The notes under the pieces were generated by a model, which saw only the letters and a program-made list of their open reading frames with translations, had not been told where the DNA came from and searched no databases. From Rhodospirillaceae bacterium (GTDB lineage Bacteria; Pseudomonadota; Alphaproteobacteria; GCA-2746255), in the NCBI GenBank assembly GCA_002746255.1, contig NVWO01000004.1:76774-140773 (forward strand): a stretch of 64,000 bases of DNA, in the 5' to 3' direction. A program made the translations under genes and the position numbers. Below, in pieces: positions 13,594 to 61,362 of this stretch. Every line of letters starts with the position of its first letter. Position 1 is the first letter of the stretch.

Positions 13594-16044
13594 ATGACAT
13601 CCAACGCGAAGGCGCAGCTTACGCCGAATGACCCGGCGAATGAAGGCCGGGAATTGTCCCTTGGCGTAAAAGGGATGACTTGCACCAATTGCGCGGGCCA
13701 TATCGAAAAAGCCCTTGGCCGGCTTGCCGGTGTCCTCAATGCGCGGGTTAATTTCACGATGGAACGTGCCGATATCCGTTTCGACCCAGACCGGGTTGAT
13801 CCTGTGGCAATCGTGAAGGCCATTCTGGACATGAATTACGAGGTGCCGCTGGTGTCGGTCGTGCTCAGGATTAACGGCATGACATGTGGAAATTGTGCAC
13901 ACACGATCGAAAAAGCGCTGAGGCGCGTTCCCGGCGTTCTTACCGCAAAGATCAATTTGGCGACGGAACAGGCTCTGTTGGAAGTGGCCCAGGGCCAGCT
14001 TGACGTAATGGCGTTGCGCAAAGCCGTGACGGCGGTGGGCTATGGCGCGACCTTTATCGACGACCCGGAAAACCGGGCGTCGGAGAACGAAAGCATTGAA
14101 GCGCGCCGCCGCCTTCACTGGCAGACCGGTTCTCTTATTGCCGCCATCCTGCTGTCCTTTCCCCTGGTTGCCCAGATGCTCGGCGACTTCGTAGGCCTTG
14201 GGTTCCATCTTTCGCCGATGGTGCAGATGGTTCTTGCCAGCTTTGTGCAATTTGGCATCGGCTGGCGTTTTTACCGCGCCGCCTGGGTGGCGCTTCGCTA
14301 CGGCAATGGCACAATGGACCAGTTGGTCGCGCTTGGAACGTCGGCTGCCTATGGGTTAAGCGTCACCCGGGTCCTTTGGCCGGAGACCGAAGGGGCGGAG
14401 GCGCTTTATTTCGAGGCATCGGCCATCATCCTTACCCTCGTTTTGCTCGGCAAATGGCTTGAAAGCCGTGCCAAGCAGGGAACGTCAGCCGCCATCCGGG
14501 CCTTGATGAAGCTTCGGCCCTCGGTGGCGAGGCTCTTGCGGAACGGTGAGGAGGTCGAGGTGCCAATCAATGCCGTGGTGGTTGGGGACGTTGTCCTGCT
14601 TCGCCCCGGGGAACGCGTGCCCGTCGATGGCGACATTCTTAGTGGTCAAAGCGAGATCGACGAATCGCTGATTACCGGAGAAAGCCAGCCGGTTGAAAAG
14701 GGAGAGGGTGCTTTCGTGACGGCGGGTTCCGTAAATGGTTCCGGGCTGCTTCACATCACGACAACGCGTATCGGCGCAGAGACAACCCTTTCGCGGATCA
14801 TCGCGTTGGTTCAAGGTGCGCAAGCCAGCCGGGCGCCGGTCCAGAAACTCGTTGACCGCGTGAGCGCCATCTTCGTCCCGATGGTGCTGGCCGCCGCCGT
14901 CTTTACACTTATGGCGCAATGGCTGTTTACGGGTGCGCCAGACGTTGCCGTGATTGCCGCCGTCTCGGTCCTGGTGATTGCCTGCCCTTGCGCCCTTGGC
15001 CTGGCAACGCCGACAGCCATCGTTGCTGGCATGGGGGCGGCAGCGCGCGGCGGTATTTTGATCAAGGACGTGGACGCCCTTGAGCGCATGCGCAAGGTAA
15101 CGGTGATTGCCCTCGACAAGACCGGAACCTTAACGGAAGGCCACCCGGCGGTTGCGGCCATCGCGCCGGTTGCGGGGGGCGACGAAGATGCACTCCTCTT
15201 GCTTGCCGCTTCGGCGCAACAGGGCAGCGAGCATCCCCTGGCGCGCGCGATATTGGATGCGGTGGGCGACAAGCCACTGAAACCCCTTGCGAGCTTTAAA
15301 AGCCTCACCGGGCGGGGTCTGGAAGCCGTCGTCGATGGCCAGCGTCTGTGGATTGGCAGTCGCAAACTGATGGCGGACAGCGGCGTTGCAATTGCAAGCC
15401 TGGATTCCAAGGCGCAGGAATTGGAAACCCAGGGCGCGACCGTCATGTGGATTGCCCATGGGGAAGGCCGGCTTCTCGGCTTTATCGCCGCCAGCGATCC
15501 GATTAAGGCAACGGCGGTAGAAGCTATCGCCCGCCTCAAAAAACTTGGGCTCACAGTCATTATGATGACCGGCGACAATCAACGTACGGCCGCCGCCGTT
15601 GCCAGCAAGCTTGGCATCGATCGGGTCATGGCTGAAATTCTTCCAGAACAAAAAATTACCGAAGTTGACAGGCTTCGGCGGGAAGGCGAGGTCGTTGCCA
15701 TGGTTGGCGACGGCATTAACGATGCGCCGGCGCTGGCGGCTGCCGATGTCGGGATCGCCATGGGGACTGGGACGGACGTTGCGATTGAAGCGGCGGGTGT
15801 AACCTTGATGCGCGGCGAGCCGCTTCTGCTTCCGGAAACCGTTCGGATCTCGCGGGCGACGGTTGCAAAAATCTGGCAGAATCTTTTTTGGGCCTTCATC
15901 TACAACGTCATCGGAATTCCCCTTGCGGCGTCAGGCATGTTAAGTCCAATCCTTGCCGGTGGTGCGATGGCGTTCAGCAGCGTCAGCGTCGTTTCAAATT
16001 CATTGTTGCTGACGCGTTGGCGCCCTGTGAAAAAACAAATATGA
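13594..16044 (+). CDS. copA: copper(I)-translocating P1B-type ATPase
   Basis: 816 aa. Two N-terminal HMA domains (GMTCTNCAGHIEKAL and GMTCGNCAHTIEKAL), the CPC transmembrane motif (ACPCALGLATP), DKTGTLT and GDGINDAPAL. Confidence 0.9.
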   Translation: MTSNAKAQLTPNDPANEGRELSLGVKGMTCTNCAGHIEKALGRLAGVLNARVNFTMERADIRFDPDRVDPVAIVKAILDMNYEVPLVSVVLRINGMTCGNCAHTIEKALRRVPGVLTAKINLATEQALLEVAQGQLDVMALRKAVTAVGYGATFIDDPENRASENESIEARRRLHWQTGSLIAAILLSFPLVAQMLGDFVGLGFHLSPMVQMVLASFVQFGIGWRFYRAAWVALRYGNGTMDQLVALGTSAAYGLSVTRVLWPETEGAEALYFEASAIILTLVLLGKWLESRAKQGTSAAIRALMKLRPSVARLLRNGEEVEVPINAVVVGDVVLLRPGERVPVDGDILSGQSEIDESLITGESQPVEKGEGAFVTAGSVNGSGLLHITTTRIGAETTLSRIIALVQGAQASRAPVQKLVDRVSAIFVPMVLAAAVFTLMAQWLFTGAPDVAVIAAVSVLVIACPCALGLATPTAIVAGMGAAARGGILIKDVDALERMRKVTVIALDKTGTLTEGHPAVAAIAPVAGGDEDALLLLAASAQQGSEHPLARAILDAVGDKPLKPLASFKSLTGRGLEAVVDGQRLWIGSRKLMADSGVAIASLDSKAQELETQGATVMWIAHGEGRLLGFIAASDPIKATAVEAIARLKKLGLTVIMMTGDNQRTAAAVASKLGIDRVMAEILPEQKITEVDRLRREGEVVAMVGDGINDAPALAAADVGIAMGTGTDVAIEAAGVTLMRGEPLLLPETVRISRATVAKIWQNLFWAFIYNVIGIPLAASGMLSPILAGGAMAFSSVSVVSNSLLLTRWRPVKKQI

Positions 16045-16991
16045 GCAAACGAAAAAAGAAGGCCAGGGCCTGGAAAACTTGGAAAGCCAGGGCCTGGAAG
16101 CCGGTCCGGATGGCAGTTTTTTTTCTGGGCATTGGTCTTGTAACGGGTGCTGGCCTGGCGCTTTTTTTTGTGGACAGGCCCGCCACACCAAAAATTGCGG
16201 CGGTGACGGCTAAACTGGCCGACACGACCGACACAGCTTCCAAAAAAACGAAGCCCCGACCGCAATGGGTGCGTGAAGCCGTTCTCGAACCGGCCATTAA
16301 AGGGCGGCCAATGATCGCCATCATTCTGGATGATCTTGGGATGAGCCGTGCGCGCACTACGGACGCGATCAAGCTTTCCGCGCCTCTCACTTTGGCCTTC
16401 CTGCCTTACGCAAACGGGCTTTGGGAACAAACCGCAGCGGCCCGCGCCGCCGGGCATGAACTGCTGATCCACGTTCCCATGGAGCCCCAGGGGAAGAACG
16501 GCGATCCCGGGCCGCATGCGCTGATGGTTCATATGACCCAGGATGAAATTCTGGAGAATCTTTCCTGGGACTTTGACCGCTTCGAACACTATGTCGGCAT
16601 CAACAACCACATGGGCAGCAAATTCACGAAAGACCCGGATAGGCTGGCGATGGTTTTTCGGGAATTAAAGGCGCGCGGTCTTCTTTTCATCGATTCCCGG
16701 ACGACCGCCGATACCGTCGCAAAGAAACTAGCGCAGGAAATTGGCGTCCCCTTCGCCGAGCGACAGGTTTTTCTCGACAATTTCAGGTCTGCGGAAAATG
16801 TGAGGGAACGCCTGGAAAAACTGGAATCGATTGCCAGAAGGGACGGGGCGGCAATCGGGATTGGGCACCCTCACAAGGTAACGCTGGCGGCGTTACGGGA
16901 ATGGCTGCCGACGCTTTTGGAAAAAGGATTCGTTCTGGTTCCGGCAAGCACGGTTGTACGCCGGCAGCTTAAAGACGCGGCGGGTCGTTAG
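16041..16991 (+). CDS. divergent polysaccharide deacetylase family protein (YibQ-like), N-terminal membrane anchor
   Basis: Internal ATG of ORF 15888..16991 (MSKRKKKARAWK... followed by a TM helix). Start overlaps the copA stop (ATGA). The last ~60 nt are duplicated at 20961-21020. Confidence 0.75.
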   Translation: MSKRKKKARAWKTWKARAWKPVRMAVFFLGIGLVTGAGLALFFVDRPATPKIAAVTAKLADTTDTASKKTKPRPQWVREAVLEPAIKGRPMIAIILDDLGMSRARTTDAIKLSAPLTLAFLPYANGLWEQTAAARAAGHELLIHVPMEPQGKNGDPGPHALMVHMTQDEILENLSWDFDRFEHYVGINNHMGSKFTKDPDRLAMVFRELKARGLLFIDSRTTADTVAKKLAQEIGVPFAERQVFLDNFRSAENVRERLEKLESIARRDGAAIGIGHPHKVTLAALREWLPTLLEKGFVLVPASTVVRRQLKDAAGR

Positions 16992-17254
16992 GAGCTTTTT
17001 TTCCGGCCACCGCCTGCATAGTGGATGGCTTCCTCGGCGGCGCGCAAAAGCGCCATCGCCTTGTTGCGGCTTTCCTGATATTCGGCTTCCGGATCGCTGT
17101 CTGCAACAACCCCGCCGCCGGCCTGCACATACATGGTCCCATCTTTCACGATGGCCGTGCGCAGAGCGATGCAACTGTCCATGGTGCCATTGGCCGCAAA
17201 ATAACCAACGCAGCCGCCATAGATGCTTCTGCGGTCCGGTTCCAGCTCTTCGAT
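16932..17254. repeat. left copy of 323-bp direct repeat (3' end of yibQ-like gene + intergenic + 3' end of trpE)
   Basis: Aligns without gaps to 20961-21283 (offset 4029), with about 14 mismatches counted by eye (~96% identity). Confidence 0.9.
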
Positions 17255-17257
17255 CAA
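16988..17257 (-). pseudogene. truncated 3' fragment of anthranilate synthase component I (trpE' remnant, last ~88 codons only)
   Basis: Its translation aligns residue-for-residue with the C-terminus of the intact TrpE at 21017..22540 (EELEPDRRSIYGGCVGYF...HYAGG), with a few substitutions. It has no N-terminal 80% and lies inside the left 323-bp direct repeat. Confidence 0.8.
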
Positions 17258-17259
17258 AT

Positions 17260-18093
17260 CTAATTTTTGGTATTCGCGGCATTATATCGTCCTCTTATGG
17301 CAACCTTCAAACCCACAGCAAAAAGCGGCAACAGTCCCAACACGGAGACCATTGTTGAGCCGACGGGCAAGTCTGCGTCAAACGACAGCCATAGGCCTGC
17401 TATGCTGCCCAATATTCCCAACCCCCATCCCAGAAATAGGCGGTGTAGCAAAGATTCGGCAAGGATAGAGGCGCTGAATACTGGAATGATCAGGAAGGCA
17501 AAGACCAGCAAGACGCCGGCGACATTAACCGCAAGCGTAATGACAGCAGCGAATGAGGCGAAAAACAGAAATTCCCATAAAAATTTTGGTTGACCCGAGC
17601 CCTTTGCATCAAACGAGAGGGCGTAGAAGCGCTTGCGATAAACCAGGTGCAGCAAGCTGAGTAGGGCGTACGCCCCTGCCACCATCAAGATTTCGTCCCA
17701 GCGGACCCAAAGGATATTGCCGTTAAACAAGGAGTTGAGTTCTTCCATGCCTTGCGTTGTGCGGCTCAGGATAACGATGGATAGTGCGGTGGTTAGCACA
17801 TAGACGCAACCGATGATGACTTCGCGTGTCGTCTTGCCGCGAACTCGGCGCAAGCCTGCGAAGGCGAACGCCGCCGCCAAGGTTGCGGCAAACGCATATA
17901 GCTGAGCGCGGTTTCCGTGGGCTTCTTCGCCAAGCAGGAAAGCAACGGAAATCCCAAGTGCGGCAACTTGGGCCAGTGCAAGATCGACAAAGATTATGCC
18001 GCGCGCCAACACATGCAGGCCAAGATAGGTGTGGGTGAAAACCATCAAGGCGCTTAAAGTGAAGGCCGGGAGCAGAATTTGCCAAGCTTCCAT
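17260..18093 (-). CDS. ABC-3 family metal (Zn/Mn) ABC transporter permease, ZnuB/MntB-like
   Basis: Internal Met of ORF 17260..18201 (MEAWQILLPAF...). Polytopic TM protein with the conserved ABC-3 pattern. Starts 1 nt after the upstream SBP gene. Confidence 0.85.
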   Translation of the reverse strand: MEAWQILLPAFTLSALMVFTHTYLGLHVLARGIIFVDLALAQVAALGISVAFLLGEEAHGNRAQLYAFAATLAAAFAFAGLRRVRGKTTREVIIGCVYVLTTALSIVILSRTTQGMEELNSLFNGNILWVRWDEILMVAGAYALLSLLHLVYRKRFYALSFDAKGSGQPKFLWEFLFFASFAAVITLAVNVAGVLLVFAFLIIPVFSASILAESLLHRLFLGWGLGILGSIAGLWLSFDADLPVGSTMVSVLGLLPLFAVGLKVAIRGRYNAANTKN

Positions 18094-18094
18094 A

Positions 18095-19006
18095 TCACTC
18101 TCCCACTGCGTCTTCAAGCGCTTCGACAATGCGGTCAAACAGCACAAAATAAGTGGTGATATCATCTGCAGACCCGACCGATTGTGGCAACACGGCAACA
18201 TTGATGCCTGTCTGTTCGCTCAAGTATCGCGCCGAACGGCGCTCGTAATAGGGCTCCATAATAAGTACGCGGGTTTGCTCTTGCTTGATGCGCGTTATCA
18301 GCCTGCTCAAGGACGCAGCACTGGGGGCTATGCCCGGTTTTGGTTCCACCTCACCAACAATCCTAAAGCCGAAAAAGTCAGCTAGATAATCGAAAGATTT
18401 GTGATAGGCGATCACCGGCCTGCCCTCTAAATACGCCAATCGCACGCGCCATTCGGACTGCTTAACTTCCATTGCTTTTGCAAAATGCTCAAACCGGCGT
18501 TGGTAATCAACTGCGTGCGAAGGATCCAACTCGCCGAGGCGGGTGGCAATCGCTTGCGCCATGCGCACGCCATTGCGCGGGTCCAGCCAGTAATGGGGGT
18601 TGCCTTTGGCGTGAACATCCCCCAAGGCTCGCGAGACGGATACCGCTTGTTTGCCGAGAAGCGGTACTGTCGTCGATAAATCTAAATATCCCGGGTTCCC
18701 AGGCAATGTATTAGAGTTCCGCGACGACTGTAGTAGTGGTGGCAGCCAGCCGATCTCCATGTCGGCACCGACGATTAACAACAGATCGGCGCGAAAGACC
18801 TTGCGGATCATACTAGGTTTGGCAACCGCAAAATGGGGGTCACGCGTGCCAGGTGTCAGGCTCTCCACAGTTACTTGGTTGCCGCCCACTGCTTCTGTTA
18901 AGGCGGCCAGGTCCTGGGTCGTTGTCACGACGCGTAACGCGGCGTGACTTATCGACGGTGCAGTCAAAAACAGCACACTGAACAACGTGCCTAAAATTTG
19001 TCTCAT
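18095..19006 (-). CDS. periplasmic metal-binding protein of the ZnuA/TroA (cluster A-I) family
   Basis: 303 aa with a signal peptide (LFSVLFLTAPSISHA) and the metal-site region DVHAKGNPHYWLDP. Preceded by a strong AGGAG SD. Confidence 0.85.
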   Translation of the reverse strand: MRQILGTLFSVLFLTAPSISHAALRVVTTTQDLAALTEAVGGNQVTVESLTPGTRDPHFAVAKPSMIRKVFRADLLLIVGADMEIGWLPPLLQSSRNSNTLPGNPGYLDLSTTVPLLGKQAVSVSRALGDVHAKGNPHYWLDPRNGVRMAQAIATRLGELDPSHAVDYQRRFEHFAKAMEVKQSEWRVRLAYLEGRPVIAYHKSFDYLADFFGFRIVGEVEPKPGIAPSAASLSRLITRIKQEQTRVLIMEPYYERRSARYLSEQTGINVAVLPQSVGSADDITTYFVLFDRIVEALEDAVGE

Positions 19007-19015
19007 GACAGGCTC

Positions 19016-20416
19016 CTAAAATATGTGTGCGGCATGTCTGCCCAGACTGAACTCAAATTGCAGCCATATGCTGTCTGCCGTTCTGTCTTGCAAATGCGTA
19101 GCCCAATCACGGTTATATTGCAGTCGCACTTTGCTGAATTCTGTTGGATACCAAGTGAGATTGGGCGACAAGCGGTTGCGGGTGTCGCGCAGCGGATCAA
19201 GGGACGTCTGTCCTTGCGCTGTGGCATAGTCCCACCTCAATCCAGCTACCCAGCCCGGTTTGAAGCCCCATAAAACCTGAGTGAATAGTCCCCAATCTTT
19301 TAGCACTTCGCGTATAGGATTGCTTGCATCGCCCGCCTCATACCGCCGGTGCAAAGCCTCCGTGTGCCATGAGACGAACGGGGATCCACGGTGTGTCCGC
19401 CTGGCCTGCCATTTCAGAAAAATATCCGCACCGAGTATTCTGGTGTTAGTGCTGGTGCCGCTGGCGTTGGGGCCGAGCACACTTGAAAGACCCAGATTGG
19501 CGCTCACTGTATCTGACAAATCGATGCCGTTTAACCAGCGCGCGCTGTATAGGAGGTCGCCGAAACCGCGCGCATTGCGGTCAATGAGAGTATGGCCCCC
19601 CACCTCTTCAGCTAGCTCACTAAGGAAACTGGTGACAGTTTCGCCTTTGGCGTTTTGCACACCGACATATAGTTCCGAGTACCAATCCGTGGGCATCAAC
19701 CAAGCGACGCGCGCGCCTTGGCTGCGCAAGCCATCACCACCAAAAAAGCGCGAAAGGACGACCGGCTGATCAACAAAACTCCAGGTGTGAGGGTGTTGCG
19801 GATTCTGACGACCGAATTCGGTATAAAACTGGCCGCCTTTGACCTGTAATCCCCAAGGCAGGCTTCTGGTGGTGAAGAAGGCCTCTTCCAGTTCGACGAC
19901 TGTTTCGCCGTCGGCGTCGATTTGGAAAATGATGTTAGCCTGAGCGTTAAAGTAGGGATCGACTGCAGCGCCAATTGTGAGTTCCACATTCTGTACCGTG
20001 AAACCGTTCTGATTGGGATCGTGAGCGCCCGCCTGAAGACCTTTCAGCGCGGCGTTGTCAACGCTGGAACCACCACTTGCAAACAGGCTGGATAGACCCA
20101 ACTGCAAGTCTCCGTTGCCGGGGGGTGTTGTGCTAGGCAGCGTTGTGACTGGGGGTGGTGAAGCTGCAGCAGGCCGGGCTTCCGATACTTGGACAGGTTT
20201 TTTGCTGGCCGATGATTCCAGCTCCTTAAGACGCTGTGCCAACGCCGCGATCTGGTTTTCATAAGCTTGCTTCATATTGTGAAATTGTTGCCTGATTTCG
20301 GATATTTGCGCGCCAAGTATGTCTACCTCTTCATTGGCCATCGCCATCGGCGCATGGAGAGCCTGCGCGCCTATGATGGCTGCTCCGAACATGGAGCGAA
20401 AATACGGACAAGGCAT
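19016..20416 (-). CDS. outer-membrane beta-barrel protein (porin-like) with N-terminal coiled-coil segment
   Basis: 466 aa. Signal peptide, then ~60 aa of heptad-like sequence (QISEIRQQFHNMKQAYENQIAALAQRLKELE), a Pro/Thr linker and an alternating-hydrophobic beta-strand body ending in a C-terminal Phe (AAHIF). First gene of the operon with the two genes above. Confidence 0.7.
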   Translation of the reverse strand: MPCPYFRSMFGAAIIGAQALHAPMAMANEEVDILGAQISEIRQQFHNMKQAYENQIAALAQRLKELESSASKKPVQVSEARPAAASPPPVTTLPSTTPPGNGDLQLGLSSLFASGGSSVDNAALKGLQAGAHDPNQNGFTVQNVELTIGAAVDPYFNAQANIIFQIDADGETVVELEEAFFTTRSLPWGLQVKGGQFYTEFGRQNPQHPHTWSFVDQPVVLSRFFGGDGLRSQGARVAWLMPTDWYSELYVGVQNAKGETVTSFLSELAEEVGGHTLIDRNARGFGDLLYSARWLNGIDLSDTVSANLGLSSVLGPNASGTSTNTRILGADIFLKWQARRTHRGSPFVSWHTEALHRRYEAGDASNPIREVLKDWGLFTQVLWGFKPGWVAGLRWDYATAQGQTSLDPLRDTRNRLSPNLTWYPTEFSKVRLQYNRDWATHLQDRTADSIWLQFEFSLGRHAAHIF

Positions 20417-20463
20417 GGCTAGTCCCCTCTTTTGATTGGAATATGCAGAACCACTGATACGGA

Positions 20464-20479
20464 GTCTCGAAAACGAGAC
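20464..20479. promoter_or_regulatory. inverted repeat GTCTCG-AAAA-CGAGAC in the promoter region of the OMP/ZnuA-like/ZnuB-like operon (candidate metalloregulator operator)
   Basis: Perfect 6-bp arms 48-63 nt upstream of the OMP start codon (minus strand). It is the only obvious dyad in the operon's upstream region. Confidence 0.35.
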
Positions 20480-20514
20480 ATGGTTCAGTTGTCAGCAGAT
20501 TGGAGGAAAATCAA

Positions 20515-20859
20515 TCAAAGTAGGGGAGGTGCGCGTGCGCGCAGAAGGCTTTTAGGGAGTTGCCTATGTGGTTGTGTAGTGGGCGGAGGTTCAACAGAAG
20601 CAATTTTTTGAATCGGGGCGGTTAGCGATAGAATGGGTGGCAGGTCCACAGACAGTTGGCCGAGCCGGCAGATTTGACATCCATCAACTAGGCTTGAATG
20701 ATCGGTAACATCACTTAGATCGTGGGATGCAACGTGCAATGCTGCAAAGAGCAGCGTAAACACCATCACCAGCCGGAGGCGGCGGAGCACGTTTATGTTA
20801 GGGCTAAACACGTTTCTCAATTCAAACCAAATAATAATGGTAACTTTTGCAGGAATCAA
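20515..20859 (-). CDS. hypothetical small exported protein (TTG start), questionable
   Basis: 114-aa ORF with a signal-peptide-like segment RRLRLVMVFTLLFAALHVAS and a His/Asp-rich start to the mature part. No recognisable family. Lies in the lower-GC right end of the insertion. Confidence 0.25.
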   Translation of the reverse strand: MIPAKVTIIIWFELRNVFSPNINVLRRLRLVMVFTLLFAALHVASHDLSDVTDHSSLVDGCQICRLGQLSVDLPPILSLTAPIQKIASVEPPPTTQPHRQLPKSLLRARAPPLL

Positions 20860-20960
20860 AGCCTAACCTAACGGCAGAACTCTAATGCTTGGCACCCTCT
20901 TTTGAGGGCAGTGATGATTTACATCAAGATCGGCGGTCCAGAGGAAAAGTTTAGGGGCTT

Positions 20961-21283
20961 GTTCTGGTTCCGGCAAGCACGGTTGTACGCCGGCAGCTTA
21001 AAGACGCGGCGGGTCGTTAAGAGCTTTTTTTCCGGTTCCCGCCGGCATAGTGGATGGCTTCCTCGGCGGCGCGTAGAAGTGCCATCGCCTTGTTGCGGCT
21101 TTCCTGGTATTCGGCTTCCGGATTGCTGTCTGCAACAACCCCGCCGCCGGCCTGCACATACATGGTTTCATCTTTCACGATAGCCGTGCGCAGAGCGATG
21201 CAACTATCCATGGTGCCATTGGCCGCAAAATAACCAACGCAGCCGCCATAGATGCTTCTGCGGTCCGGTTCCAGCTCTTCGAT
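20961..21283. repeat. right copy of 323-bp direct repeat (carries a yibQ' 3' fragment and the genuine trpE 3' end)
   Basis: See left copy. Similarity ends exactly where the trpE' remnant gains a spurious start (left) and where the intact trpE continues (right). Confidence 0.9.
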
Positions 21284-22540
21284 GATTTCCATTGCGCGTA
21301 CCTTTGGCGCACCCGAGACGGTGCCGGCGGGAAAGCCTGCAATGAGCGCGTCAATCGCATCGAATTTCGGATCAAGCCGGCCTTCAACGTTCGAAACAAT
21401 GTGCATAACGTGAGAATAATATTCGATGATCATTTCTTCAGTTACATGAACGCTGCCAATCTCGGCGACGCGGCCAACGTCGTTCCGGCCAAGGTCAAGC
21501 AACATCAGATGTTCAGCCCGCTCTTTCGGGTCGGCGAGCAGGTCTTCCGAGAGCTGCCGGTCTTCTTCGGCATTTTTTCCACGCCGCCGCGTTCCGGCGA
21601 TCGGACGGATTGTTACCACGCCGTCGCGAACCCGGACCAGAATTTCAGGGCTTGAGCCGACGACGGCGAAGTCCTGGAAGTCGAGAAGAAACAGGAAAGG
21701 TGAGGGGTTCAGCCGTCGCAGCGACCGGTAGAGCGCAATGGGCGGTAGCGGGAAGGGAACCTGAAAACGCTGCGAGGGGACCACCTGGAAAACGTCACCA
21801 GCCCGAATGTAGGCCTTCGCCCGTTCGACCATTCCGTGATACGCCTCGCGGGTCTGATTCGAAACCGGAACTGGTGTCTCGGTGGATGGCGGCGCGCTCA
21901 TCTTTTCATGGGAAAGGCTTTCGTCAAGGGTCACAATGCATTGCTGAAGACGTGCTTCTGCCTTCGCATAGGCGGCCTTCGCATCGAGTTCTTTTTTTGG
22001 GCGAACCGGCGTGACCAGGATCGCCGTGTCTTCAATGTTGTCGAAGATCACCATTACCGTCGGACGAACGAACATGCCATCGGGCAAGCCGGAAATGCCT
22101 GCCGGGTTTGTGGCGGGCAGGTCCTCCATTAATCGGACCATGTCATAGCCCATATAGCCGACGAGGCCTGCGGCCATTGGCGGCATCGCGTCAGGCAGGT
22201 CGATGGCAGACTTTGCAAGCAAGTCGCGGAAGGAAGCGAACACGTCGCCTTCAATGGGGCGAAAGGCGGTGGCATCGACATCGGCATTTTCGTTAATCTC
22301 TGCCCGACCACCGAAGCAACGCCAAATGACATCTGGACGGGTGCCGATAAAAGAATAACGTCCGCGCGTGGCACCACCTTCAACGGATTCGAGTAGAAAA
22401 CCGTTCGGCGAATGTCCGGCAAGTTTCTGCATGGCCGAAACGGGGGTTTCCAGATCGGCAATCAACTTCGTCCACACGACCTGTGGCCGGTTGGCGGTGT
22501 AGTTTTCTGAAAAATCTCCGAAGGAGGGATGGACGGACAT
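21017..22540 (-). CDS. trpE: anthranilate synthase component I
   Basis: 507 aa chorismate-binding enzyme. The last ~88 codons are duplicated at 16988..17257. Confidence 0.92.
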   Translation of the reverse strand: MSVHPSFGDFSENYTANRPQVVWTKLIADLETPVSAMQKLAGHSPNGFLLESVEGGATRGRYSFIGTRPDVIWRCFGGRAEINENADVDATAFRPIEGDVFASFRDLLAKSAIDLPDAMPPMAAGLVGYMGYDMVRLMEDLPATNPAGISGLPDGMFVRPTVMVIFDNIEDTAILVTPVRPKKELDAKAAYAKAEARLQQCIVTLDESLSHEKMSAPPSTETPVPVSNQTREAYHGMVERAKAYIRAGDVFQVVPSQRFQVPFPLPPIALYRSLRRLNPSPFLFLLDFQDFAVVGSSPEILVRVRDGVVTIRPIAGTRRRGKNAEEDRQLSEDLLADPKERAEHLMLLDLGRNDVGRVAEIGSVHVTEEMIIEYYSHVMHIVSNVEGRLDPKFDAIDALIAGFPAGTVSGAPKVRAMEIIEELEPDRRSIYGGCVGYFAANGTMDSCIALRTAIVKDETMYVQAGGGVVADSNPEAEYQESRNKAMALLRAAEEAIHYAGGNRKKSS

Positions 22541-59445: not shown

Positions 59446-61362
59446 TTGCTGACCCTCAACCAGATCACCATGCGCCTCGGCGGGCATGTGGTGCTTGACT
59501 ACGCCTCAGCCACCTTGCCGTCGAAAAGCCGCGTTGGTCTCATAGGTCGAAACGGCGCCGGAAAATCGACCCTTCTCAAGATCATCGCCGGCATCCACCA
59601 CGCCGATGGCGGCACCGTCGACGCACCACGGGGAACCCGTATTGGTTATATCGCCCAGGACATGCCGGGCGGTGAGGCAACACCGTTCGAAACGGTGCTG
59701 GCAGCCGACACCGAACGCGCGCACCTGATGGTCGAAGCAGAAAGCACACAGGACGCCCACCGCATCGGCGAAATCCATGAACGCCTTGATGCCCTGGACG
59801 CCTATGCTGCCCCGGCACGCGCGTCGCGCATCCTGGCCGGCCTCGGCTTTGACGACGAGACGCAGCATCACCCACTCTCGTCCTTTTCCGGTGGCTGGCG
59901 CATGCGTGTCGCTTTGGCGTCCCTTCTGTTCTCCCGGCCCGATCTTTTGTTGCTGGATGAGCCATCAAACCATCTCGATCTTGAAGCCGTGATTTGGTTG
60001 GAATCGTTTCTCAAGACCTATCGCGGCACCGTGATCGTCGTTAGCCATGAACGCGATTTTCTAAACAATGTGACGGACCACATCCTCCATCTTGAGGGCG
60101 GCAAGACGACGCTTTATTCCGGCTCTTACGACGCGTTTGAACGCCAACGATGCGAACGCCAGGCCCAGGCCGATGCCATGCGTGTGAAACAGGAAGCCAA
60201 GCGCCAAAAGGTGCAGGCCTATGTCGATCGCTGGCGTTACAAAGCGCATACAGCCCGCCAGGCCCAAAGTCGCCTGAAGGCGCTTGCGCGCATGGCGCCG
60301 GTCACTGCCGCCGCCGAAGATGCCTCCATCCTGCTCGACTTTCCAAGCCCGAACGGATTGCGCCCCCCACTCGTCACCCTTGAAGAGGCCTCGGTCGGCT
60401 ATACCGCCGGCAAGCCTGTACTATCCAACCTCAATTTTCGGATCGATCCCGACGACCGCATCGCGCTGTTAGGCCGCAACGGAAATGGCAAGACAACCCT
60501 GGCGCGCCTGCTGTCCGGGTCCTTAAAGGCGATGTCCGGCACGATAACCACGAGCGCAAAGATGCATGTGGGCTATTTTGCCCAGCATCAGATTGAAGAA
60601 CTGGAACCTGACGACAGCCCACTGCAACACATGGTGCGACTGCTGCCGGACGCGAAGCAAAGCTTCGTTCGCGCCCAGTTGGGCCGCTTTGGCTTTTCAG
60701 GCGATAAGGCGAATTTAAAAGTTCATAAGCTTTCCGGCGGCGAACGCGCCAGGCTTGCTCTCGCGCTGATCACCCGTGATGCGCCACATATGCTTATTCT
60801 GGACGAACCCACCAACCATCTCGACATCGATACACGCGAAGCGCTGGTCGAAGGACTGAACGCGTATGGCGGTGCCGTCATCATCATCAGTCATGATCGC
60901 CATCTGCTTGAACTGACCGCCGACCGGCTGATCCTGATCGACAATGGCGCCGCTCAGGAATTCGATGGCAGTCTGGATGACTATCGCGATTTCATACTCG
61001 GTCGTGGCAATCGAAATTCCGGGGTCGAAGAAGACAAGCCAGCGCCACGTGCCAACCGCAAGGAAGAACGTCGCCGTAGAGCCGAGCTTCGCGAGCGCAC
61101 CCAAACGCTACGCAAAAAGATCGCCAAGGCCGAGCATGAAATAGCAGGTCTGGAAAAACAGATTGCCGAAATTGATCGCGCCCTGCTTGAACAAAGCGCC
61201 TATGAAGGTCCTCACAAAGGCATCCCCACAAACACGCTTGTCCAGATGCGCGCCAAAATTGACAAGCAACGCCTGACCACCGAGGCCAGCTGGCTAAAAT
61301 CCAGTCAGGTCATGGATGAAATGACGAAAGCCGAAACGTCGAAGCAGAATCTGACAGCATAA
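59446..61362 (+). CDS. ABC-F family ATPase (translation-associated, Uup/EttA/YheS-like), no TM domain
   Basis: 638 aa. Two ABC cassettes (GRNGAGKST and GRNGNGKTT Walker A motifs; LSGGWRMRVALA and LSGGERARLALA signatures), a linker and a C-terminal coiled-coil/charged tail. TTG start (MLTLNQITMRLGG typical). Confidence 0.88.
   Translation: MLTLNQITMRLGGHVVLDYASATLPSKSRVGLIGRNGAGKSTLLKIIAGIHHADGGTVDAPRGTRIGYIAQDMPGGEATPFETVLAADTERAHLMVEAESTQDAHRIGEIHERLDALDAYAAPARASRILAGLGFDDETQHHPLSSFSGGWRMRVALASLLFSRPDLLLLDEPSNHLDLEAVIWLESFLKTYRGTVIVVSHERDFLNNVTDHILHLEGGKTTLYSGSYDAFERQRCERQAQADAMRVKQEAKRQKVQAYVDRWRYKAHTARQAQSRLKALARMAPVTAAAEDASILLDFPSPNGLRPPLVTLEEASVGYTAGKPVLSNLNFRIDPDDRIALLGRNGNGKTTLARLLSGSLKAMSGTITTSAKMHVGYFAQHQIEELEPDDSPLQHMVRLLPDAKQSFVRAQLGRFGFSGDKANLKVHKLSGGERARLALALITRDAPHMLILDEPTNHLDIDTREALVEGLNAYGGAVIIISHDRHLLELTADRLILIDNGAAQEFDGSLDDYRDFILGRGNRNSGVEEDKPAPRANRKEERRRRAELRERTQTLRKKIAKAEHEIAGLEKQIAEIDRALLEQSAYEGPHKGIPTNTLVQMRAKIDKQRLTTEASWLKSSQVMDEMTKAETSKQNLTA

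Follow-up and report, generated by a model that had tools for sequence, protein, structure and literature searches.

Copper acquisition by Gram-negative bacteria is poorly known, and the few copper-specific outer-membrane transporters known are, according to a 2026 paper on CrtA, all TonB-dependent. The copper-repressed cruR-crtA(bfrG)-PepSY_TM operon of Bordetella pertussis is headed by the gene for CruR (Bp2923), a DUF2946 protein termed copper-responsive upstream regulator and defined by an export signal, a CXXC motif, 45 residues, a C-terminal RAPP, the first place in the operon and a long intergenic region; mutation of CxxC or RAPP abolishes the copper control (repression) of the copper TonB transporter (PMC9426467). 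The locus described here lies on the minus strand of a 64,000-nucleotide (nt) stretch of contig NVWO01000004.1 from a Rhodospirillaceae bacterium (the window, numbered from its first nucleotide). It centers on a gene whose product is, as judged from its predicted structure, a TonB-independent, porin-fold outer-membrane protein of a previously unclassified family. The analysis, which was computational throughout, places this gene second in a four-gene cassette of leader peptide, porin, cluster A-I (ZnuA-family) binding protein and ATP-binding cassette (ABC)-3-type permease. It points, with somewhat better than even confidence, to a TonB-independent, leader-controlled metal-uptake module, most likely for copper rather than for zinc or manganese.

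Relatives of the parts of this cassette are already known, namely DcaP, MnoP and RopAe, CruR and CutF, and ZnuABC and PsaBCA. The cruR operon is arranged as in the window: an exported DUF2946 leader with CxxC and RAPP at conserved spacing comes first, an outer-membrane importer follows after a long intergenic region, and then an inner-membrane component. It differs in having a 22-strand TonB-dependent transporter in the outer membrane and PepSY_TM in the inner membrane, and its control has been shown to act via Rho-dependent termination. In CutF-CutO of Rhodobacter capsulatus and in SecM-SecA, the ribosome-binding site (RBS) of the next gene is concealed in a stem-loop, which opens when a ribosome stalls at the Pro motif at the C-terminus of an exported leader, and a hairpin in the window has the same geometry. 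CutF, in contrast to the window leader, carries CxxxC; stalling there is induced by copper, and the gene under control encodes a detoxifying multicopper oxidase. ZnuABC, AztABCD and PsaBCA share with the window a PF01297 binding protein with a three-His site and a PF00950 permease, whereas the window unit includes a dedicated porin and a leader peptide, has no ATPase gene and no His-rich loop, conserves an additional D130/H132 in the binding protein, and has a shortened, hypervariable coupling helix in the permease. MnoP of Bradyrhizobium japonicum (manganese) and RopAe of Rhizobium etli (copper; induced when the metal is scarce) are, like the window porin, TonB-independent outer-membrane channels tied to a metal. 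They belong, however, to other porin families (RopAe to Porin_2, PF02530), have no coiled coil, and their genes stand neither together with a binding protein and permease nor behind an arrest-peptide leader. The CruR and CutF papers and the available parts of their supplements mention no ZnuA, ABC or porin partners, and literature searches found no description of the cassette. Within the literature searched, the porin family is new. So are its almost obligatory association with the other three components (DUF2946 leader, cluster A-I binder, ABC-3 permease), the apparent loss of the ATPase, and the direct pairing, in such a system, of arrest codons with the Shine-Dalgarno (SD) sequence of the next gene.

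A preliminary description of the gene, made from the sequence alone, had proposed a 466-residue protein with a signal peptide, a Pro/Thr linker, a beta-barrel and a terminal Phe, and the open reading frame (ORF), the sequence and an AlphaFold2 model agree with it. The N-terminus, MPCPYFRSMFGAAIIGAQALHAPMAMA followed by NEE, resembles a signal peptide with A-x-A at the cleavage site. The model, built on 62 homologues with a mean predicted local distance difference test (pLDDT) score of 70.6, consists of a helix, a disordered Pro/Thr-rich segment and 16 beta strands (Table 1). Structure prediction had been named as the test of the barrel, and a barrel is what it returns. The coiled coil, put earlier at about 60 residues, is shorter: the model and the sequence periodicity delimit a helical, heptad-like segment of about 43 residues. 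Heptad-type hydrophobic periodicity occurs in the helix region of the window porin and of 64 of 70 family members, and is missing from the barrel part. The chain ends in HAAHIF, and the terminal F466, an aromatic C-terminal residue of the kind that serves as BAM signal, is nearly invariant (at least 90% in the 62-sequence alignment).

The existence of thousands of homologues indicates that the porin ORF is real beyond chance. Among 8,000 candidates scored, 5,341 matched the family; 3,289 representatives of 50%-identity clusters were found at E ≤ 1e-3, 456 of them at E ≤ 1e-30. Almost all are unnamed in the databases, called "hypothetical protein" or misnamed. In agreement with the earlier suggestion of a poorly described porin family, scans of the porin and three homologues against Pfam and NCBIfam gave no family above its curated cutoff, the porin families compared being Porin_1/2/4, Porin_O_P, DcaP and DUF3138 of Pfam and LbtU and FapF of NCBIfam. 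The best sub-threshold matches (DUF3138, 12.7 bits, cutoff 27.3; LbtU, 14.7, cutoff 90; FapF, 15.9, cutoff 700) fall mostly on the coiled coil. Sequence and profile searches of PDB chains with the porin found nothing significant, the profile search yielding coiled-coil noise only. The database name "TonB-dependent receptor", given to some homologues, was rejected for a protein of 466 residues with 16 strands and no plug. The porin has no Plug or TonB_dep_Rec match in Pfam, a TonB-dependent receptor being composed of a plug, a TonB box and a 22-strand barrel in about 700 or more residues. A few entries name porin homologues "zinc-regulated ... receptor", and no NCBIfam model fits "zinc-regulated TonB-dependent receptor".

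A Foldseek search of the PDB with the porin model returned as top matches exclusively 16-strand porins, with E-values of 5e-10 to 4e-8, about 10% identity and template modeling (TM) scores of up to 0.62, normalized to the target. They include OmpE36, OmpF/OmpC/OmpK36, chitoporin, Omp32, OprP/OprO and DcaP (PDB code 6eus). DcaP of Acinetobacter baumannii is the closest architectural analogue, with the same succession of signal peptide, N-terminal periplasmic coiled coil, short Pro-containing linker and 16-strand barrel. Its 49-residue coiled coil stabilizes a trimer of 16-strand barrels, and by analogy the window porin probably trimerizes through its own periplasmic coiled coil at the N-terminus. 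The two proteins differ in that they are about 11% identical, share no Pfam family and have no detectable sequence relationship. Moreover, DcaP is anion (dicarboxylate)-selective, with an Arg-rich constriction, and is encoded outside metal operons, whereas the window porin conserves His, Asp and Glu. ScrY and FapF are likewise barrels with an N-terminal coiled coil.

The loops are the best conserved part of the porin family, the long one between strands 5 and 6 showing almost no variation from phylum to phylum. Conservation of the loops above the rest of the protein is unusual for a porin and the opposite of what general porins show. By comparison with the constriction loop of porins, the strand 5-6 loop would lie inside the pore. 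Five His residues are kept in 74 to 77 of 77 proteins, down to 41% identity: H132 in loop 1, H208 and H210 in an H-P-H motif of loop 3, and H461 and H464 in the tail motif G-x-H-x-A-H-x-F. These residues may form a metal site or selectivity filter in the porin.

The cassette was followed through 80 loci taken from a species-level genome collection, with porin identities of 41–76%. Represented in this set are Gamma- and Alphaproteobacteria, Nitrospinota, Nitrospirota, Verrucomicrobiota, Planctomycetota, Acidobacteriota, Gemmatimonadota, Methylomirabilota, Deltaproteobacteria and an anammox bacterium. A non-TonB outer-membrane component dedicated to a binding protein and a permease had been proposed from the window, and linkage of its homologues to metal-transport genes recurs elsewhere: a ZnuA-like gene lies directly downstream of the porin in all 76 loci with at least 1 kb of downstream sequence, and an ABC-3 permease then follows in 60 of the 63 with enough room. 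In the window, the gap between the porin TAG and the binding-protein ATG is exactly 9 nt (GAGCCTGTC), as had been reported. Beyond these genes, the flanks hold 194 Pfam families in 150 downstream ORFs and 128 in 150 upstream ORFs, none of them in more than five ORFs, and a survey of these neighbors for a conserved extra partner (ATPase, regulator, chaperone or cuproenzyme) found none. The same four-gene unit stands in unrelated surroundings in Thiohalobacter, in Sulfuriflexus and in a metagenome-assembled genome (MAG). Because the genes beyond the four are unrelated from locus to locus, the unit is an autonomous cassette. The nearest named relatives of the window porin are gammaproteobacterial (70% identity to Thiohalobacter), and porins from alphaproteobacterial MAGs are 55–62% identical to it. 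A horizontally mobile, self-contained cassette with the porin as its second gene best explains these data. Two loci annotated as Verrucomicrobiota and Akkermansia sp. (L065 and L078) depart from this otherwise constant arrangement: they have the porin and the ZnuA-like gene and no ABC-3 permease within 6 kb downstream. At L050 (2707–4013) the cassette is decayed, with the porin split in two ORFs, the binding-protein gene truncated and no permease.

The porin had been taken for the first gene of its operon; it is preceded on the same strand by a conserved leader ORF of 100–114 residues. The leader consists of an Arg-rich stretch, a hydrophobic export segment (LRRLRLVMVFTLLFAALHVA), CQIC, 44 residues, RAPP, the two residues LL and the stop codon. 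The motifs C-x-x-C-R-L and A-R-A-P-P-L are invariant and equally spaced in four cassettes (the window and three other genomes). Of the 76 loci with enough sequence upstream of the porin, 71 have a RAPP-type leader there, defined as a small ORF with R-[AGS]-P-P and at most eight residues at its end. The gap to the porin, 98 nt in the window, is 80–110 nt in most related loci. Fifty-two of the 71 leaders contain CxxC, and in all but two of these the CxxC-RAPP spacing is 43–46 residues; the others have single-Cys or His/Cys variants instead. In loci L024, L028-L031, L033, L053 and L058, annotated as Porticoccaceae, Pseudomonadales and unclassified Gammaproteobacteria or Pseudomonadota, a single Cys (ECQLS...) replaces the CxxC and RAPP persists; the leaders of different clades may differ in the ligand that they sense or in their affinity for it. 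The leader probably starts at a TTG near 20820 or a GTG near 20790. The opening codons of the longest leader ORF are overlapped by a sigma-70-like promoter match, TTGATT-17-TATTAT at 20831–20859 (minus strand). Were translation to begin at the TTG near 20820 that aligns with the homologues, the leader mRNA would have hardly any 5' untranslated region, so that the start codon is uncertain.

Between the end of the leader and the RBS of the porin, the RNA forms a hairpin in which the RAPP codons and stop of the leader pair with the porin SD sequence. Its computed free energy is -42.3 kcal/mol (z -4.3), and none of 200 shuffled sequences was equally stable. Pairing of the SD with the RAPP region recurs in many loci, with compensatory changes in the two arms from locus to locus: CUGUUCUGAUUGAUC with GAUAAAUCAGAACAG, CCUGAAUUCCCGA with UCGGAAUUCAGC, and CUGCUGAAUCGUU with GACGAUUCGGCAG. 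RNAalifold found no consensus structure in a MAFFT alignment of 20 leader-porin intergenic regions, because their lengths and registers differ. In its place, locus-by-locus duplexes were computed and duplex energies of cognate and non-cognate arms were compared by permutation. Over 54 distinct loci, cognate arms averaged -16.2 kcal/mol versus -11.4 kcal/mol for non-cognate arms, a difference reached by none of 5,000 permutations, shared ancestry being uncorrected. An Rfam search of the cassette matched no known RNA family.

The binding protein belongs to cluster A-I, and its three-His site, H58/H138/H202, aligns with the ligands of Synechocystis ZnuA (1pq4/2ov1), the closest solved structure, and is invariant in 74 sequences. 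Next to the site, D130, H132, E84 and E221 are invariant in the same sequences. The His-rich loop of ZnuA is absent, with no run of His between residues 105 and 135. Scores against NCBIfam equivalogs are far below every cutoff (AztC, 112.7 bits, cutoff 350; ZnuA, 77, cutoff 268).

The permease ORF remains open as far as 18201. Its product can be aligned with PsaC along 250 residues and has no D/H pair aligning to the PsaC metal site. In place of the coupling helix it has a short, variable loop (LSFDAKGSGQPKFLWEF). No importer-type ABC ATPase is encoded in the cassette or in the entire 64-kb window, and in close relatives no ATPase gene lies between or beside the binding-protein and permease genes; a few loci have unrelated, generic ABC ATPase matches within 6 kb. 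Three layouts occur among the loci. The most distant porins (41–49% identity) stand before a complete importer of substrate-binding protein (SBP), ATPase and permease, with the canonical coupling motif D-x3-A-x3-G; at L067, L085 and L086 such an importer lies behind the same porin and leader. In an intermediate group, mostly annotated as Verrucomicrobiota, there is usually no adjacent ATPase and the coupling motif is kept. The third layout, which includes the window and about 55 loci, mostly at 55% identity or more, has no ATPase, and its permeases (L004-L064) carry a loop of 8–16 residues, variable in length and composition, between conserved LSF and FLWEF. Decay at the one element on which an ATPase docks argues, at the level of sequence, that these permeases no longer use one. 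With no ZnuC-type ATPase and the canonical coupling helix lost, the inner-membrane step differs from textbook ABC import. The only ABC ATPase motifs in the window belong to a two-domain ABC-F-type ATPase (59446..61362, plus strand) unrelated to the cassette.

These features suggest the following course of events. By analogy with CruR and CutF, the leader would be exported co-translationally and the ribosome would arrest on its C-terminal RAPP. The arrested ribosome would cover the 5' strand of the hairpin, whose pairing and covariation are observed, and this would free the porin SD for translation; the binding protein and permease would follow by translational coupling across gaps of 9 and 1 nt. 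Metal bound to the leader CxxC would alter the arrest, so that the operon would answer to periplasmic metal, with copper relieving the arrest and switching uptake off. The metal would cross the outer membrane through the porin, where the HPH of loop 3 and the three other invariant His residues would serve as a selectivity or binding site, and the His-rich binding protein would capture it and pass it to the permease. In the clade of the window, from which the ATPase gene and the coupling helix have been lost, the permease would work without a dedicated ATPase.

Regarding the metal, the preliminary description had proposed a metal-acquisition module, with zinc or manganese as the implied metal. 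Uptake is favored by the present analysis, and the choice of metal is not: zinc or manganese is no longer the best guess, because experiments link the leader family to copper (PMC9426467, PMC9973294). Cys-containing leaders of the DUF2946 type or like CutF, which is described in PMC9973294, sit upstream of copper genes, and DUF2946 genes are co-fit with a copper receptor in Pseudomonas. Given a leader whose motifs and their spacing agree with those of CruR, and an importer as cargo, repression of uptake by copper appears to be the likeliest logic. Uptake under scarcity is further indicated by the closer resemblance of the leader to CruR than to CutF, by the importer-family cargo and by the distant members that are complete SBP-dependent ABC importers. 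A circumstantial precedent is found in Methylococcus capsulatus, where a ZnuA-family binding protein of the copper-limitation cluster CRC3 is up 6.9-fold under copper limitation; CRC3 was rejected as the same system, since its permease is of the FtsX/MacB type. A more specific version of the copper reading, which we regard as a serious possibility and a doubtful one, is copper acquisition without TonB or ATP: a His-lined trimeric porin would admit Cu(II), a cluster A-I protein would capture it, an ATPase-free facilitator permease would carry it inward, and an arrest-leader switch would mask the porin RBS, in a system that would be widespread and previously unrecognized.

Several points weigh against a leader-controlled copper importer. 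Conserved Met or Cys residues of the kind used for Cu(I) are absent from both the porin and the binding protein. In the AlphaFold2 model porin loops 1 and 3 have pLDDT values below 50, so that the pore-lining position of the His residues and the trimer are presumed. The leader scores 18.0 bits (E 0.005) against PF11162 (DUF2946), below the cutoff of 23.7, and three orthologues score 13.3–22.0 bits; because the score stays below the Pfam threshold despite the CruR hallmarks, the leader is, judged by sequence, a divergent branch of DUF2946. Leaders of the DUF2946 or CutF-like type are not all specific for copper, His-only ones accompanying Ni/Co genes. An ATPase may be encoded elsewhere in the genome, its absence covering the cassette and the 64-kb window. 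Finally, copper relieves arrest in CruR and induces it in CutF, and with both effects known the sequence does not tell which sign the regulation has.

Further points against copper are also the grounds for a zinc (or manganese) module, in which the porin, a ZnuA-type binder and a ZnuB-type permease would work with a ZnuC from elsewhere and the leader Cys residues would sense zinc. The classical His triad seen in zinc-specific ZnuA is present in the binding protein, which matches AztC best in NCBIfam and Synechocystis ZnuA best in the PDB. The only metals known to date for cluster A-I proteins are Zn, Mn and Fe, according to the abstract of PMC8811889. In addition, a Caulobacter DUF2946 gene adjoins czr genes (Zn/Cd) in a Zur-regulon table, "zinc-regulated" names occur among the porin homologues, and FUR-family proteins account for two of the 150 upstream-neighbor ORFs surveyed. 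We nevertheless consider this explanation unlikely. The binding protein lacks the His-rich loop and scores 113 bits where AztC requires 350, the permease has no counterpart of the PsaC-site D/H pair, the "zinc-regulated TonB-dependent receptor" names are architecturally wrong, and it is the Cys-containing DUF2946 leaders that stand upstream of copper genes, production of BfrG having been assayed with added Cu, Fe and Zn. No inverted repeat or Zur-box-like palindrome was found upstream of the cassette, and no match to a Zur box (TGTTAYNNNRTAACA, up to two mismatches) near it, this motif, from Caulobacter, being a weak test.

Less probable still is a copper-induced handling or tolerance module, in which copper would induce the arrest as in CutF, turn the cassette on and have periplasmic copper moved under control. 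PcoB, PcoC and PcoD of copper-resistance operons provide an analogy for such a role. The pairing of arrest codons with a downstream SD is the architecture shown for CutF-CutO, where stalling is copper-induced, and metal-resistance genes adjoin some cassettes (a CopA-type ATPase in the window, CzcCBA in Thiohalobacter, MerR/HMA in a MAG). These neighbors are not systematic, however; the leader has the CruR-like signature of CxxC, RAPP and a spacing of 44–45 residues, not the CxxxC of CutF, and the cargo belongs to importer families, with complete SBP-dependent ABC importers among the distant members. A general diffusion porin or structural outer-membrane protein that is by chance a neighbor of a metal transporter is highly improbable, for although the fold best matches general porins, the linkage spans many phyla without exception (76 of 76 loci), with coupling over 9 nt, the loops are most conserved and five His residues are invariant.

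The porin family is large and unannotated and occurs in many phyla, including sulfur oxidizers, Nitrospinota, Nitrospirota, anammox bacteria and Methylomirabilota. If the leader-controlled copper-uptake reading is true, the porin would represent a new class of metal-selective porin, copper would be a new metal for cluster A-I binding proteins, and the permease would be a member of an ABC family working without an ATPase. The arrest-peptide/SD-masking switch, fully defined by sequence, would provide a simple genetic handle, and the names "TonB-dependent receptor" and "hypothetical protein" would be corrected on thousands of genes.

Table 1. Features of the cassette and its borders in the window
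Feature	Coordinates	Strand	Remarks
Leader ORF, CruR/DUF2946 type	20515..20859	minus	longest ORF 114 aa (amino acids); ends 98 nt upstream of porin
Leader CxxC (CQIC)	20668..20679	minus	
Leader RAPP	20524..20535	minus	
Leader stop	20515..20517	minus	
RNA hairpin, leader end to porin RBS	20423..20527	minus	
Hairpin 5' strand	20512..20527	minus	Pro codons UCCCCU, then UUUGAUUG including UGA stop
Hairpin 3' strand	20423..20438	minus	CAAUCAAA and Shine-Dalgarno AGAGGGGA
Porin gene	19016..20416	minus	466 aa, confirmed ORF
Porin, apparent signal peptide	20336..20416	minus	aa 1-27; MPCPYFRSMFGAAIIGAQALHAPMAMA then NEE, read from sequence
Porin, predicted coiled-coil helix	20207..20335	minus	aa 28-70; AlphaFold2 model
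Porin, Pro/Thr linker	20105..20206	minus	aa 71-104; AlphaFold2, disordered at 73-101
Porin, predicted 16-strand barrel	19043..20104	minus	aa 105-458; AlphaFold2 DSSP
Porin, long loop of strands 5-6	19718..19831	minus	aa 196-233, 38 residues; position of porin L3 constriction loop
H208-P-H210 within strand 5-6 loop	19787..19795	minus	
Porin, C-terminal tail GRHAAHIF	19019..19042	minus	sequence
Cluster A-I (ZnuA-family) binding protein	18095..19006	minus	303 aa; PF01297, E 1e-52
ABC-3 permease (PF00950)	17260..18093	minus	277 aa from ATG 1 nt past binding-protein stop
Left direct-repeat copy	16931..17255		about 325 nt; trpE 3' fragment and 3' end of convergent deacetylase gene
Right direct-repeat copy	20960..21284		3' end of intact trpE (21017..22540)

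In the window, the 3.7-kb cassette is bracketed by two copies of a direct repeat that are 95% identical. No integrase or transposase gene is present inside the repeat-bounded cassette, and the repeat looks like the scar of a single-crossover insertion, by a circular DNA that bore a trpE fragment from a related genome. The left copy leaves a trpE' fragment ORF (16988..17257, minus strand). The region between trpE and trpGDC holds, immediately beyond the repeats that bound the cassette, the gene of an 816-residue P1B-type ATPase (13594–16044, plus strand) with two HMA domains and a CPC motif, resembling the copper exporter CopA. Metal genes also lie near other cassettes, namely CzcCBA at L004 (Thiohalobacter) and MerR/HMA at L006 (a MAG).

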